Origin: a bacterium
Lineage (GTDB): Bacteria > UBA8248
Reading direction: 5' to 3'
Length of the DNA: 64,000 bases
Assembly (NCBI GenBank): GCA_963692865.2
Contig: OY843592.1
Location: forward strand, 2,304,001 to 2,368,000
This document shows, in pieces, positions 31,211 through 37,421 of the stretch (positions within the stretch are counted from its first letter, which is position 1; the number at the start of each line of letters is the position of its first letter). A program made the position numbers and the translations under genes. The notes under the pieces were generated by a model. That model did no database searches. It was given only the letters and a program-made list of their open reading frames with translations, and was not told where the DNA came from.

Positions 31211-31547
31211 ATTTTACATAACTCCTGAATTCTTTTGCGTTGTAATTTGTCGAAAACCGGCCCATGAAATACATAACCCCATGAAAATCAATAGAATACA
31301 TTTTCAGGAATTTATCCAAAAACATCGTGAATTTATCTGAATTTATCCAATTTTGCAGGAATTCCGGACGGGGGGTTTTCGTCCCGTATTCAGGACGCTC
31401 CATCGTTTCGGCGTCCTTGTGAGCGTCGCGTTGTCCCGCCTTGCCCGAGCGCATGAAAATTCCTCCTCGCGGCGGATTCTGCCCCATCCCGCCGAGATCG
31501 CGATGACCGCAAATGCGAGGAAATGCGGGTCAGTCTCTACCGATGAG

Positions 31548-31928
31548 GGCCGCTCCGGACCCCTCCCGCGTCCGCGGAACCCGGGCCCACACCCGTCAAC
31601 ACCTCCCGCGACGGCAGGCAACCGCCCGGAACCACCGCGCGTCGACCTTGCGCGTCACGGTCGGCCGCATACCCTTCCGGAATGGCCTCCGACTCCGCTT
31701 CCACCGCCTGGCGGATGATTCGCTGCGCGCCCTCGCGCGCCGGTTCGCTTAATTCGTCCCGAAAGGCTGGATTCCTGAAGGGAATCGTCGTATCTTCTCC
31801 CGTGGCGCCGCATCTCCCGTGGCGCCGCATCTCCTGTGTGCTGAATGACCGGGCTTTGGACAACCCTGTTTCAGCAGGATGCGCCGCCTTCTTCAATTCA
31901 GATCATACGCAAGATCTGAGAGTAACTC
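31548..31928 (-). mobile_element. IS256-family remnant (left end plus degraded transposase N-terminus), copy 1
   Basis: Translates to EDTTIPFRNPAFRDELSE..REGAQRIIRQAVEAE...GRRAVV...REVLTGVGP. Start codon lost, frameshifted, contains a ~17-bp tandem duplication, and is near-identical to 37058-37421. Confidence 0.85.
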
Positions 31929-32040
31929 TGTAGCCGCCGCATGTATGGTTACATAAACGCGAATACTAGTTTGTAGCATTGTTCAGAGGTATAATTGTCG
32001 ACTATAATTTACAATTAGACTTGCTAGTAAGGAGAAGTCA

Positions 32041-32184
32041 ATGACGTTATTACCAGTGCATATTTTTCTTGCCAGTATTGTGGAGCGAAGAAGTGCCGTA
32101 GAGCTGGCGACCCCGCACGAACATATTCTCATCAAGACTTCGTCGGCACGTTTTGAGCGACATTGGTTTAATTTCTCTGGCTAG
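32041..32184 (+). CDS. Possible 47-aa small ORF leading the island operon
   Basis: AAGGAG 6 nt before ATG 32041, two TATAAT boxes at 31990 and 32003, closes at TAG 32184; below the ORF-track size cutoff. Confidence 0.3.
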   Translation: MTLLPVHIFLASIVERRSAVELATPHEHILIKTSSARFERHWFNFSG

Positions 32185-32259
32185 GCCGGTTAGCCGGTGT
32201 CTAAAGCGTTTTCTTAGAGTTTGTCTGAATTTTCCTGCATTCGAAGGCTGGATACTATA

Positions 32260-32973
32260 ATGGAAGCTTTTTGTAAGCGAATGGATTTAAACTATGAGAT
32301 CGAATTCTCAGCGATATCTTTTGATTTGCCGGAACGCGGATTGGCGCTATTGAAGTCCATCCATGCCAACATCAATCCGCAATTCTCGATTGCTGCGACC
32401 GACATGCATGTCTTTGGAGGGAATTCGCTTTCAGACATTCGCGTACGTGTTTCTATGTTCAACAGAAACGCACAGATTGAAATTACGACGGACAGATGTA
32501 CAATCAGTTTTCTTAACTTGCTAAATGATGACCACTTGACGATATGCAAAATTTGCATTTCGTTGATAGAGAAGGCTCTTAAGGATGTATTGACGAATGT
32601 TCAATTTGACGCTGCGATCATCAAACCAATCTTATATCTTGAGCTCGGCAGGGGAGAAAGCAGTGCGAGTAGTTATCTAACAAGTCTCACACCCCCTAAC
32701 AGTCGGAGCAGCTTAGATGAAATTGGCAATGTCACCGTTCATCCTGGCATAAACATCGAAGTGGATAACGAAGAGGAAAAGTGGAATGTGATCTTGAATG
32801 CGTTTCGGGATCGCGCAGAGGATTCGTCGCTTATAGTTTCTTGTCACGCACTATATAGTGAGAAAGGAGAAATTCATGGCTTGGATAGTCGGAGTGAACA
32901 TCTGAAGCGTTTGATTAATGTCTTTCTCAACAATATCGGCCTGGATGTTTCAGGCTTTATATCGGAAGTGTAG
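32260..32973 (+). CDS. Hypothetical alpha/beta protein, possibly TIGR04255-like
   Basis: Alternating strand/helix pattern (LNYEIEF; AQIEITTDRCTISF; IIKPILYLEL; WNVIL...LIVSCH; C-terminal helix); stop lies 2 nt before the antitoxin start. Family call is tentative. Confidence 0.6.
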   Translation: MEAFCKRMDLNYEIEFSAISFDLPERGLALLKSIHANINPQFSIAATDMHVFGGNSLSDIRVRVSMFNRNAQIEITTDRCTISFLNLLNDDHLTICKICISLIEKALKDVLTNVQFDAAIIKPILYLELGRGESSASSYLTSLTPPNSRSSLDEIGNVTVHPGINIEVDNEEEKWNVILNAFRDRAEDSSLIVSCHALYSEKGEIHGLDSRSEHLKRLINVFLNNIGLDVSGFISEV

Positions 32974-32975
32974 CC

Positions 32976-33623
32976 ATGCAAATGACAAAATTTGGATATG
33001 ATGAAAGTGACGTGTCGACTCCGATGACTCCTCTCGACTTCAATCAATCCCCTTTTGTTTTATGGCAAAGTACGGGATGCAGCCCAATAAATCACCTAAA
33101 AGGGTATCAGTCGGGGCAATCGTTATTCGAGCACAATCCGTTTGGTGGTGAGGATTGGGTATTCCGTAGAGCACCGGTTCAGAGAGAAATAGACTGGATT
33201 AATAGTTTGCCACATGGTGAGACGGTGGTCCAAACCATGGGCACAGTTTATCTAACACCGTTTGGGGGTCGATTAACGGGCCCTATACATTTCTTCGGAA
33301 ATCTCTTGGAGACTTGGAAGTTGAATCGGGATGATGCTGTGCCCTTGCTGGGTTTCGAGAAGACCGACCGGCTATACGTCGAGCATCTGTTGAACGGCCA
33401 TGCTGTCCTTTCGGGTCGTGATGCAAAGGATAGGATTGCTTATCTTTTCGAAATTCGAAGAACGCTTGCTGCGTTATTTTTGGATGAAGATGTCGAAAAC
33501 GCGTGGCTTCGGGAAGCGCACACGATGCTGAATGATCAAGTTCCAATGGAGTTGTTGCTGGAAGGTACCATGGAGAACATTCTGCTTGTCAGGGATTTCG
33601 TGGATGTGGCGGCGGGTCGGTAG
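32976..33623 (+). CDS. Xre/MbcA/ParS-type antitoxin (DUF2384-like) with ~100-aa N-terminal extension
   Basis: C-terminal half FGNLLETWKL..DAVPLLG...DAKDRIAYLFEI...LF......AWLR.....LNDQVPMELLL.G.......V..FVD is the MbcA/ParS pattern; directly upstream of a RES gene. Confidence 0.8.
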   Translation: MQMTKFGYDESDVSTPMTPLDFNQSPFVLWQSTGCSPINHLKGYQSGQSLFEHNPFGGEDWVFRRAPVQREIDWINSLPHGETVVQTMGTVYLTPFGGRLTGPIHFFGNLLETWKLNRDDAVPLLGFEKTDRLYVEHLLNGHAVLSGRDAKDRIAYLFEIRRTLAALFLDEDVENAWLREAHTMLNDQVPMELLLEGTMENILLVRDFVDVAAGR

Positions 33624-33625
33624 TT

Positions 33626-34258
33626 GTGCTTGGGTCCGTACTAACCGAAAGAAATCAGCATAAGCTATATCGTTTGGCTAACCAGCTACCAATTATGGAC
33701 TTCCTGGAAGAGCAGGGTCTTGAAGGTGAAAGCGTGCAGGAAATGCAGGACTTGCTTCATGCACGAGGCATCGTTGACTCTCCCGATGAACTTTGCGAAG
33801 TGCCGTTCAGAGTAAAAACGAGGTTGAATAAGGATGGGCGTTACATAACGCGTTTCTCGGACAGCTCCTTTCCTGTTTTTTACAGCGCTTTGGAAATGGA
33901 AACTGCTGAAGCGGAAACTTGCCATTGGTTTCGCAAATTTGTAGGAAACCCCAACAGGCCGAGAACTGGATACTATTTATGTTTTAGCTGTGATTTTGAT
34001 GGATTAGTAAAAGATTTGAGATCCAAACACATGGAATGGGTAGAACTCACGGATGAAGATTATGAATTTTGCAATAAATTGGGTGCCGAAGCGGTTCAAC
34101 TCGATCTGGATGCGTTACTAAGCCCGTCGGCCCGTAAGGCGGACGGAACATGTGTTCCGGTGTTTACAAGAACGTCGATTAGCAATCCGCAGGTAGTAAC
34201 GCATGTTGCCGTAACTTATGATCCTTCCACTGACAACGTGCAGATGAAGGTCGTGTAG
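33626..34258 (+). CDS. RES-domain toxin (NAD+ phosphorylase family)
   Basis: LYR, TRFSDSSFPVFYSALEMETAEAE, DLR, DY..C..LG, DALLSPSAR..G.C..VF: R, E and S catalytic residues present. Confidence 0.88.
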   Translation: MLGSVLTERNQHKLYRLANQLPIMDFLEEQGLEGESVQEMQDLLHARGIVDSPDELCEVPFRVKTRLNKDGRYITRFSDSSFPVFYSALEMETAEAETCHWFRKFVGNPNRPRTGYYLCFSCDFDGLVKDLRSKHMEWVELTDEDYEFCNKLGAEAVQLDLDALLSPSARKADGTCVPVFTRTSISNPQVVTHVAVTYDPSTDNVQMKVV

Positions 34259-34483
34259 AAGCCGTTTGACAAATAAAGGAAACCGGCGTGGAACCAAGAT
34301 AAAGCATGCCGCAGAATGTGGAATACAAAAGAAGAGCGGGAGATTAATACTGCCACAAGATAAGCGCGGGAATATTCAGGAACGCAAAGGAACTCAGATT
34401 AATCTGATTGACCTCTTTAAACTTTCTATGGTTTGTTTGAGTCGATTGCTGCCGTTGCTCAAAGCTAAAGGGGGGAAGGGGAA

Positions 34484-35260
34484 TCATTCCTTCTCCTGAA
34501 TGTAGTCTCGGATTGTAGCAATAATTTGGGTTGGCTCAATCTGGATGTGTGAATATTCAGTTTCCCTTCTCCATCCTATATTCCAGGTAATGATTCCTGG
34601 GGTGTAGCCTATCCCATTGATAAATGGTTCGCGATTAACGGTATTTTCACTTGGATCGATCTGGGTGCTTTTCTGACTGAAATATTTGCTCCAAATTATT
34701 TCGGCTAGATCCGGCCATGTCTCAATGTTTCGCAGGATTTCTTCTATATCTCGGCACCCAGGAATTTCTGCAGTCCATGGTTTTTTCGGAATGTTGCTGC
34801 CGGTTATTTCGAGCAATGATTTTTCAGCCAAAGCACTAGCCACTAAACCTATATCTTCACGCGCCAAAACAAGCCGTTCTAGTTGCCGCAAAAAAGTGCC
34901 TCGATCAACAATTACCCTTTCGCTCGAATCATTTATTACGTCAAGATTTGTTTCATTGAAATCAAGGTAAAATATATGAACTATCATTCCTAGAAGTCGT
35001 TTTAAGTGTATGTTTCTTTGCTGATTCATTCCGTCGGACACAGGAATACTCCATCCTCGCAAATGAGACGGGAGAAGCTCTCCGCTTGGATCAGCCATAT
35101 GGATTGTTGTAATGATATCTCGTGCAGGAAGCATGAGGTGCGTAAATTGGTATGCCCTGGATGTGCTCAAGGAGTCACCATGCAAGGGCAGGGATACAAT
35201 AAGATTTTGAATTTCAGGCAAGTTGCCTTTTAGAATTTCTACTTGATTGGTCAAACGCAT
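34484..35260 (-). CDS. Hypothetical protein
   Basis: 258-aa ORF with AAGGAGG RBS, 22 nt downstream of the co-oriented NDT/TIR-like gene; AT-rich; no recognised family. Confidence 0.7.
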   Translation of the reverse strand: MRLTNQVEILKGNLPEIQNLIVSLPLHGDSLSTSRAYQFTHLMLPARDIITTIHMADPSGELLPSHLRGWSIPVSDGMNQQRNIHLKRLLGMIVHIFYLDFNETNLDVINDSSERVIVDRGTFLRQLERLVLAREDIGLVASALAEKSLLEITGSNIPKKPWTAEIPGCRDIEEILRNIETWPDLAEIIWSKYFSQKSTQIDPSENTVNREPFINGIGYTPGIITWNIGWRRETEYSHIQIEPTQIIATIRDYIQEKE

Positions 35261-35282
35261 CTATTTCACGTCCTCCTTATCC

Positions 35283-36320
35283 CTATGTTTTTCTCGGGAT
35301 GTTGGTGTCACCTGCAATACGATCCGCAAGCCTTTTGCGCAAATCTTCCGGATCCTTCCAATCAATATGATTGTACTGACGGGTGTCGAAATGGACGTGC
35401 TTCAACTTATCTTTTTGGCAAGTGAATATCACGGGAATGTTCAATCCGTGCGCAAAGCCGGCTTCGTAATAAACTCCGCCTCGCCCTCCTCTTTCCCCTT
35501 CGTCCGTAAAGTCCGCAACCAAAAACCGGGAGCGCCTGATTTGCGCGATTATTTCATCGTCAATCTTGTTTGAAAATTCTTTGCGGTCTATCCGAAGTGC
35601 CTTATATCCAGCGTCTTCAATTCCCGGTTCAAAGCCTTTATCGAAGACCTCTTTGGTGGAAGGATCAAACCACATCGCCACAAAGGCTTGTTCTGAATCC
35701 ACGATCACTTTCTTGAGCTCATCGAGGTGAGCATATCCCTTTACTGATATGATGAATTTATCGGTCTGCCCTCCGGGATTCTCTTTCTTGAGCCAGCCTT
35801 GCGATTCCAGGTAATCCAATAAATATGAAACCTCAGTCGTGTTGATGGATTCGGACTGCGCCAATGCTTCTATTTCTTGAGCGTTATAGCCTGTGGGTGT
35901 AGCGGAAAAAGGAATGTGCGCGGCTTTTCCGATGTGCGGGGTTTCTCTCTCGACGTACTGGAGAAGTTTATCCGCGCGTCCTGAGATCGACATGTCCGGT
36001 TGACGTTCTATATGCTTAATCACTTCCTTTGTTAACATCGGATGCTCATTACCATTTTGTCGCTGCTCGATCAGCCAAGTGGTCAGGCGGGCTTTCAGGC
36101 GATCAATACTTCTGGGTTTTCCTGTGAAGCCATCCTTGGATGATTCTGGATTCATATTTTCTTCAGTTGCGTATTCACCTTCCTTGTATTCCAGAAAAAA
36201 TTGAGCATTACGGGGGATGACATAATACCCACCGGCACGCTCTGAATTTACTATAACTTGATAGCCTTGAAAGGGCTCAACTCTTGCTGGGGACCCCCAT
36301 ATAGGGCATTTATCGTTCAT
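35283..36320 (-). CDS. Winged-helix + nucleoside 2-deoxyribosyltransferase/TIR-like domain protein
   Basis: EVSYLLDYLESQGWL...ISVKGY wHTH-like segment; C-terminal AFVAMWF...GY.ALRID...KIDDEIIAQIRRSRFLVADFT...GVYYEAGFAHGLNIPVIFTC...HFDTRQYNHI.W. Confidence 0.8.
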   Translation of the reverse strand: MNDKCPIWGSPARVEPFQGYQVIVNSERAGGYYVIPRNAQFFLEYKEGEYATEENMNPESSKDGFTGKPRSIDRLKARLTTWLIEQRQNGNEHPMLTKEVIKHIERQPDMSISGRADKLLQYVERETPHIGKAAHIPFSATPTGYNAQEIEALAQSESINTTEVSYLLDYLESQGWLKKENPGGQTDKFIISVKGYAHLDELKKVIVDSEQAFVAMWFDPSTKEVFDKGFEPGIEDAGYKALRIDRKEFSNKIDDEIIAQIRRSRFLVADFTDEGERGGRGGVYYEAGFAHGLNIPVIFTCQKDKLKHVHFDTRQYNHIDWKDPEDLRKRLADRIAGDTNIPRKT

Positions 36321-36530
36321 TAGGACCTCCACTCCCAAGATAGTCTTCCGTCTCTATCCTGAATGTCCGACAGGTCGGCTTGCGGCGTGTGTTTTTTATT
36401 TGCCGGGCGATGCGGTATCTCTACACCCTAGAAGATTACGGCCTCACGCCGAAGAGGGTCAACACCACATTTGTACGCTATCGGGATTTCATCACCAGCC
36501 GCGGGATTCGGGTCGTCGCGACATTAAATC

Positions 36531-36728
36531 AAGCGCTACAGCATGACTACCGCGCTCATCGAGACACTCCGCTACACCGACGCCGTCTACAAAGAATCAG
36601 GCTGGAACCACATCGGAACCACATAGGGACGCGGACGCTTCGACAGGATTAAACGCTTCAACAAGCCCAAGAAGGACGTCTGGCTACAACCGCTGCGCAG
36701 AAACCGGAGGCAACTCCTCAACCGCTGA
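36531..36728 (+). pseudogene. DUF4338-family C-terminal fragment (mobile-element associated)
   Basis: KRYSMTTALIETLRYTDAVYKESGWNHIGTT*GRGRFDR..FNKPKKDVWLQPLRR: DUF4338 C-terminus with an internal TAG and a small deletion. Confidence 0.7.
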
Positions 36729-36796
36729 AACATTCGCCAACACCCCGCGACTGAACGAATAGAAGACACGTAACCGTTCAGGCAAGTCGGGATAGA

Positions 36797-37421
36797 GATA
36801 CCGTCCGCCCACAGATACGCGAACTCCTCGCCACCCCGGTCCCGCTCGCGCCACTGCGCGTACTCGCGCTCCCAGCCGTCCTTGAGCCGCGCGACGCTCG
36901 CCGGGGACAATCCCTTCACCGACTCGCCGAACAGCGCCGTGAGCGCTTCACCAAAGTCGTTCGTCGATACCCCCTTCAGGTACAGCCACGGAATCACCGC
37001 CTCCTTACGCCTCATCTTCTTCAGATACGACGGCAAAAGCTCCGAGAGGAAGCCCCGGCCCGCCCCCGACCCCTCCCGCGTCCGCGGAACCCGGGCCCAC
37101 ACCCGTCAACACCTCCCGCGACGGCAGGCAACCGCCCGGAACCACCGCGCGTCGACCTTGCGCGTCACGGTCGGCCGCATACCCTTCCGGAATGGCCTCC
37201 GACTCCGCTTCCACCGCCTGGCGGATGATTCGCTGCGCGCCCTCGCGCGCCGGTTCGCTCGACCCGTCGCGCAGGACTGGATTCGTAAAGGGAATCGTCG
37301 TATCTTCTCCCGTGGCGCCGCATCTCCCGTGTGCTGAATGACCGGGCTTTGGACAACCCTGTTTCAGCGGGATGCGCCGCCTTCTTCAATTCAGCTCATA
37401 CGCAACTTCTGAGGGTAACTC
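36797..37421 (-). mobile_element. IS256-family remnant (left end plus truncated, frameshifted transposase), copy 2
   Basis: RVPRTR...SELLPSYLKK..EAVIPWLYLKGVSTNDFGEALTALFG...LSPASVARLK..W..EY..W..R......YLWADGI, truncated at the first catalytic Asp; terminal sequence shared with copy 1. Confidence 0.9.

Follow-up and report, generated by a model that had tools for sequence, protein, structure and literature searches.

A three-gene variant of the RES-Xre toxin-antitoxin modules with an unannotated accessory family and a long antitoxin tail

RES-domain toxins are widespread effectors that degrade nicotinamide adenine dinucleotide (NAD+). Here, we describe a RES locus in a 64,000-nucleotide stretch of bacterial DNA, referred to as the window (GTDB lineage UBA8248; GenBank assembly GCA_963692865.2, contig OY843592.1, positions 2,304,001 to 2,368,000). 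It consists of three open reading frames (ORFs) on the same strand, which are separated by gaps of 2 nucleotides (nt) and encode a protein of an unannotated family, here called g1, an antitoxin with an Xre/MbcA/ParS-type core and a RES-domain toxin (Table 1). The locus is thus a three-part variant of the RES-Xre modules with an unannotated accessory family. A preliminary description, made from the sequence alone, had reported three co-oriented, AT-rich genes with 2-nt gaps, and this is in agreement with both the ORF calls and the GC content. ATG 32260 was preferred over TTG 32221 as the start of g1, because the same start methionine is found in all six close homologues other than the window protein itself. 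A scan for promoters and terminators stayed at chance level, with 6 promoter-like sites against 7.4 expected.

To follow g1 beyond the window, 19 loci of its family were collected from the window, from scans of genomes and metagenome contigs, from the genomes holding those loci, and from samples of the class and the order of one holder genome. The class sample contained g1 loci in 5 of 400 genomes and the order sample in 7 of 53. In all ten loci of the RES kind, the long antitoxin follows directly after g1, with a distance of −8 to +17 nt between the g1 stop and the antitoxin start codon. RES is the third gene in seven of them (window, L001, L002, L022, L046, L047 and L048); the contigs of L005, L020 and L021 end before the RES position. 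The order of the triad is kept down to 34 % identity of the RES protein and 26 % of the antitoxin. For 17 loci covering all module kinds, the distance from the g1 stop to the start of the middle gene ranges from −23 to +17 nt, and we propose on the basis of this spacing that g1 is translationally coupled to the antitoxin. The assignment of g1 to the operon in the preliminary description is therefore borne out by the synteny of the ten RES-kind loci and their short gaps. That description had also asked whether g1 is linked to RES-antitoxin pairs elsewhere: for the relatives of the RES-linked kind, the antitoxin follows in all ten loci and RES in the seven that are not cut by a contig end, and the distant relatives head other arrays, which are treated below.

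Single family members deviate from this arrangement. The g1 gene of L003 (6001-6750) is split by a frameshift or stop, is followed by neither an antitoxin nor a RES gene, and looks like a decayed remnant, and L049 holds a g1-family gene at the contig edge. A candidate for a twentieth locus, L004, consisted of a 27 % tblastn match without a supporting ORF and was dropped as spurious.

Table 1. Coordinates of the RES module and of further features in the window
Feature	Position	Strand	Remarks
g1	32260-32973	+	237 aa, ATG start, TAG stop; acidic, unannotated family, first in the module
Antitoxin gene	32976-33623	+	215 aa, ATG start 2 nt past the g1 stop
Antitoxin N-terminal tail (residues 1-97)	32976-33266	+	predicted disordered (pLDDT <50), hypervariable
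Antitoxin core	33267-33623	+	helix-turn-helix region and Xre/MbcA/ParS C-terminal toxin-binding domain (PF09722, residues 164-210)
RES-domain toxin	33626-34258	+	210 aa, GTG start 2 nt past the antitoxin stop; closest to NatT
AT-rich island with the module	31929-36590		~4.6 kb, GC contrast to the flanks
Left copy of the ~380-nt direct repeat (5' part of a transposase gene)	31547-31928	-	repeat search
Right repeat copy and truncated Mutator-family (IS256-like) transposase	36587-37421	-	Pfam Transposase_mut, E 1.7e-9
Right copy of the ~380-nt direct repeat	37057-37421		
258-aa protein without family	34484-35260	-	
351-aa protein, TIR-like	35283-36338	-	
aa, amino acids; pLDDT, predicted local distance difference test.

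The antitoxin falls into two parts that differ strongly in their predicted structure. In an AlphaFold model built from a 7-row alignment, residues 101-215 are all helical with a pLDDT of 88-97, whereas the blocks of residues 1-100 reach only 33-50. The Pfam family Xre_MbcA_ParS_C matches the C-terminal domain only (27.5 bits, cut-off 24.5). The best structural match of the core is NatR from the Pseudomonas aeruginosa NatRT complex (E 1e-4, target-normalised TM-score 0.68-0.77 over ~118 columns), followed in this order by VPA0769, MbcA, the P. putida Xre antitoxin and ParS. The matched RES antitoxin chains of known structure are 71-149 residues long. The tail itself consists to 46 % of P/S/G/T/Q/N and to 13 % of F/W/Y. 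Two earlier statements, that the first ~100 residues are poorly structured and that the likeness to MbcA/ParS is confined to the last ~115 residues, thus hold with the predicted disorder and the extent of the confident helical core.

A long disordered N-terminus could simply reflect a misplaced start codon. In such a case the tail would not be made, the antitoxin would start near residue 89 and g1 would be an unrelated neighbour. Indeed, there is an in-frame ATG at residue 88, and among 28 antitoxin-core relatives other than the window protein (44-97 % identical) three are annotated with a length of only 122-144 aa. The remaining 25, however, are 188-265 aa long, and one of the three short forms (P0163) is a deletion fusion of g1 and antitoxin. 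Furthermore, in seven of seven loci the reading frame stays open through the 68-150 codons in front of the conserved core (shuffle P 0.0002-0.045 for each locus), whereas the other two frames of this stretch contain 0-15 stops. The frame stays open even though the sequence of the tail changes rapidly: tails are 51-84 % identical at a core identity of 92-97 %, with a 5-residue in-frame indel, and can no longer be aligned (14-19 % identity) at a core identity of ~60 %. Together with the start codon at the g1 stop in all ten RES-kind loci, this supports translation of the tail and leaves a start near residue 89 hardly credible. An internal methionine start, which the preliminary description had named as a point that would speak against its reading, consequently finds no support. 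Judged from the lengths of the relatives and of the solved RES antitoxin chains, the long tail is specific to this antitoxin clade.

No motif is claimed within the tail: a candidate around F56 is invariant in the seven loci, yet it is replaced in two close relatives. The free change of the tail is illustrated by L002 (6714-6830), where it opens with four tandem units of 7-8 residues that are rich in Lys/Arg/Ala.

Two fused family members connect the tail with g1. In P0163, the first 27 residues of g1 are joined in frame to the antitoxin core, and the entire tail is missing along with the greater part of g1; g1 and the tail were therefore lost together in one event. In P0074, residues 1-180 of g1 are fused to the antitoxin core.

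The Pfam family RES (PF08808) matches residues 70-199 of the toxin with 59.8 bits (cut-off 23.2). The toxin looks intact, because R76, Y86, E97 and R170 are invariant in seven of seven RES orthologues, which also carry a Ser/Thr at position 166 or 168. These residues probably correspond to the catalytic residues of the solved toxins. The only sequence matches in the PDB are chains of NatT, and these are weak (best 8qnl_C, E 0.15). This alignment begins at residue 20 of the query and thereby well upstream of the Pfam match; NatT is described with an extra 'Flap' (PMC11535050). By analogy to its solved relatives, the RES protein is presumably an NAD+ phosphorylase or NADase. Two more RES genes are present in the genome of the window (L007 and L009). 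One of them has an upstream antitoxin-like gene of 224 aa and no g1, and the other encodes a 278-aa RES protein without an obvious Xre partner.

For g1 itself, no match was found in Pfam, NCBIfam, PADLOC or PHROG. A word-indexed search returned only six relatives, and an exhaustive HMMER search among 1.84 billion proteins yielded 228 representatives of the family (E <= 1e-3), nearly all of them ~235 aa long. From the 150 matches listed, 96 near-full-length sequences were aligned together with the window protein. These 97 members have no Pfam or NCBIfam family in common (Pfam: three single chance matches with E ~0.007-0.009; NCBIfam: none). A search of the PDB sequences with the g1 profile, tblastn searches of plasmids and phages with g1 and with two distant relatives from its family, and a scan of viral contigs with one g1-family alignment (A6) all returned nothing, and the ESM Atlas contained unnamed clusters only. 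The preliminary description had considered a SecB-like chaperone. This could not be upheld at the level of families, since SecB of Pfam did not match g1 at E <=1 nor any of the 97 members at E <=0.01; SecB is also absent from the matches of the fold search, which is indecisive by itself.

The AlphaFold model of g1 (pLDDT 81, predicted TM-score 0.80) shows a duplicated beta-alpha-beta4-alpha unit. This is the architecture of TBP-like and AdoMetDC-like folds, and the fold matches include TBP and rolling-circle Rep proteins. On this basis, g1 could bind nucleic acids like TBP and regulate the operon, comparable to the repressors that some toxin-antitoxin systems of three genes encode separately. 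We regard this as very improbable: TM-scores to TBP are only ~0.3, the antitoxin already has a helix-turn-helix region, and the family is acidic with a median isoelectric point (pI) of 5.24 and a pI below 7 in 96 of 97 members (window protein: pI 4.99, net charge −12). Similarly, g1 could be an enzyme or a second effector, for example of an AdoMetDC-like or guanidino-kinase-like type, with the antitoxin, the toxin or a product of NAD as the molecule that it modifies. The alignment of the 97 members gives this idea little chance as well, as there are no conserved polar residues across the family and only F16, F84 and W175 are near-invariant. With TM-scores of 0.2-0.4, no functional residues in common and an acidic surface composition, the resemblance of the predicted g1 to both folds is one of architecture only. 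A protein-binding, non-enzymatic accessory is favoured over an enzyme or a DNA binder, because only hydrophobic positions are near-invariant and the family is acidic, and the conservation pattern would fit such a role. Modelling g1 as a complex with antitoxin residues 1-100 resulted in an ipSAE (interaction prediction score from aligned errors) of 0.00 in both runs, which speaks neither for nor against binding.

Distant relatives of g1 head two further kinds of array. The first, termed type B, was found at five loci in three genomes (L013/L025, L014/L026, L050, L051 and L052), with two genomes carrying the array twice. Here, g1 is followed by a protein of ~240 aa and another one of ~150-170 aa. 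The middle proteins of the paralogues can be aligned over their C-terminal ~126 residues only, and their N-terminus is unconserved. For the downstream proteins of type B, Pfam, NCBIfam and the PDB gave no match and the Atlas no named one, and an ESM Atlas search with the third protein returned unnamed clusters only. The second kind is present in L023 and L024 (genomes G361 and G092, flagged as unpublished) and combines g1 with a protein carrying a DUF5678-like C-terminus (E 2e-4) and a retropepsin-like aspartyl protease (E 2.6e-4), both matches lying below the Pfam cut-offs. The literature searched contained no relevant paper on DUF5678. Altogether, members of the g1 superfamily precede no fewer than three kinds of gene pair, namely Xre-RES (10 loci), type B (5 loci) and the DUF5678-like/protease-like pair (2 loci). 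All three kinds share g1 and the position of the middle gene, whose start lies at the g1 stop, and the variable part of the middle protein is its N-terminus in the RES kind as well as in the type-B paralogues.

A comparable layout exists in arrays headed by TIGR04255 proteins, which the preliminary description had brought up as reminiscent of g1. As homology, this likeness was rejected. TIGR04255 does not match g1 in NCBIfam at E <=1 (cut-off 30 bits) nor any of the 97 members, and it has no match in the genome of the window. A search with the g1 hidden Markov model found no TIGR04255 ORF, and hmmsearch with filters switched off gave nothing better than E 0.3. The hhalign comparisons of g1 with TIGR04255 (P 0.08-0.27, compared to 0.37 for a reversed control) are at noise level. 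TIGR04255 is also far commoner: 30 of the 201 sampled genomes contain it, in comparison to the 5 of 400 genomes of the same class for g1.

As operon logic, in contrast, the resemblance stands. In the 12 best-scoring TIGR04255 loci (L027-L038), a protein of ~250 aa is encoded by the first gene, seven loci encode third proteins of ~190-280 aa downstream that are homologous to each other, and a different conserved pair is present in two more. The middle proteins that were read have, judged by eye from the printed sequences, a long N-terminal region followed by a helix-turn-helix-like stretch. In L031, the middle protein has an N-terminal extension and a core with a match to MbcA (E 0.02, residues 131-203). 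The third genes in the arrays read are not RES genes, unlike in the triad described here. TIGR04255 was not mentioned in the literature searched.

Among known systems, the locus is closest to the RES-Xre type II toxin-antitoxin modules (COG5654-COG5642), which include NatRT, MbcTA, ParST and the P. putida RES-Xre pair. It shares with them the RES toxin and an antitoxin with a core folded as in NatR, VPA0769, MbcA and Xre, encoded directly upstream of the toxin. Published descriptions present RES-Xre as two-gene modules (PMC2701414; PMC11535050). In contrast to these, the ten RES-kind loci have a conserved third gene upstream, and the antitoxin exceeds the length of the solved chains by a disordered N-terminal tail of ~100 residues.

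A second point of reference are the toxin-antitoxin-chaperone (TAC) systems. In these, as reported, a SecB-like chaperone recognises an extension of the antitoxin via aromatic patterns and can be competed for by a phage protein, and pairs of chaperone and extension are movable between toxin-antitoxin units (PMC5105189; bioRxiv 10.1101/2024.02.24.581848). Our triad resembles HigBAC and CmdTAC in having three genes, an unstructured antitoxin extension with aromatic residues, and one accessory family common to different toxin-antitoxin pairs (g1 with its three kinds of array). The accessory, however, is SecB there and a 237-aa duplicated alpha/beta unit without a SecB match here. The extension (ChAD) is C-terminal there and N-terminal here, where the C-terminus is the toxin-binding domain, and the accessory gene comes last there and first here, combined with a RES toxin. 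Of the TAC-like system put forward in the preliminary description, the three genes and the N-terminal tail therefore remain, and the modular use of the g1 family parallels that reported for TAC systems, whereas a SecB-like accessory is not supported. We consider the TAC analogy plausible for the RES triad, and by this analogy g1 might act as a chaperone or sensor for the tail.

Based on these comparisons, we tentatively favour a tripartite, NatRT-like RES-Xre module in which g1 is a dedicated accessory acting through the antitoxin tail, with a probability of roughly 0.45. In this model, the RES protein would be the effector acting on NAD+, and the helical core of the antitoxin would bind and neutralise it. 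g1 would be made together with the antitoxin and bind its disordered, fast-evolving N-terminal tail. It would then either stabilise or hold the antitoxin, or a trigger such as a phage protein would compete g1 away and thereby cause release of the toxin. The gene content, the conserved triad, the translated and predicted disordered tail and the modular spread of the g1 family are supported by the analysis itself, whereas the binding of g1 to the tail, the direction in which control runs and a possible function in defence are inferred. That g1 works through the tail is suggested because both the start of the middle gene at the g1 stop and the variable N-terminus of the middle protein recur in more than one kind of module. 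A point of caution comes from the same genome, where another RES toxin has an antitoxin of 224 aa as its partner and no g1.

Alternatively, g1 could be a true third component that acts on the RES toxin or on the complex, or that senses a small molecule or a phage factor directly, with the tail serving another purpose, for example as a protease degron. This seems unlikely to us. The other two kinds of module carry different third proteins, so the toxin cannot be the common target, and the visible common feature besides g1 is that the middle gene begins where g1 ends. In addition, g1 and the tail were lost jointly in P0163.

The module lies on an AT-rich island. The GC content is 41-48 % over positions 32000-36499 and 53-72 % in the flanks, and two families of repeats (D1 and D2), with copies that are 95 % identical, bracket the island. 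The right transposase copy breaks off exactly at the onset of the AT-rich DNA. Furthermore, g1 was found in only one of 51 genomes of the phylum of the window, which is the window's own genome, and in one of 401 genomes of a sample from another phylum. The rarity of g1, the divergent composition and the transposase flanks indicate that the module was acquired horizontally.

Two more genes are located on the same island. The 351-aa protein has a C-terminus similar to TIR and nucleoside deoxyribosyltransferase domains (PADLOC TIR effector, E 5e-10; phrog_16139, E 5e-43), and the adjoining gene encodes the 258-aa protein without a family. Both genes may form a second defence unit. Next to the module of relatives, genes for HsdM, the methylase of a type I restriction-modification system, and for DUF5677 proteins were found in L001, a D12 methylase in L002 and a HipA kinase in L022. 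Such neighbours are typical for defence or toxin-antitoxin islands.

According to a 2024 study of NatRT, the activating signals of RES toxins are unknown and no RES system has been tied to immunity (PMC11535050). The combination of a conserved g1 and a hypervariable tail is a concrete candidate for this missing layer of control or sensing. The preliminary description had not recognised the arrangement as a described one, and, in agreement with this, no three-gene RES system was found in the literature searched, as judged by titles and the beginnings of abstracts. The g1 family, and by analogy the much commoner TIGR04255 family, might in general form a new class of modular accessories that read disordered, fast-evolving N-terminal tails in three-gene conflict modules, a generalisation that we put forward as possible yet doubtful. 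If true, a trigger, for example a phage protein mimicking the tail, would be coupled to varied effectors, among them a RES NADase and a retropepsin-like protease, and the system would be a convergent counterpart of the SecB-based TAC systems on an unrelated fold. g1 and the unrelated TIGR04255 arrays hint at a general design of accessory, tailed adaptor and effector. For the RES systems, the third protein and the tail point to a control layer that has not been described so far.

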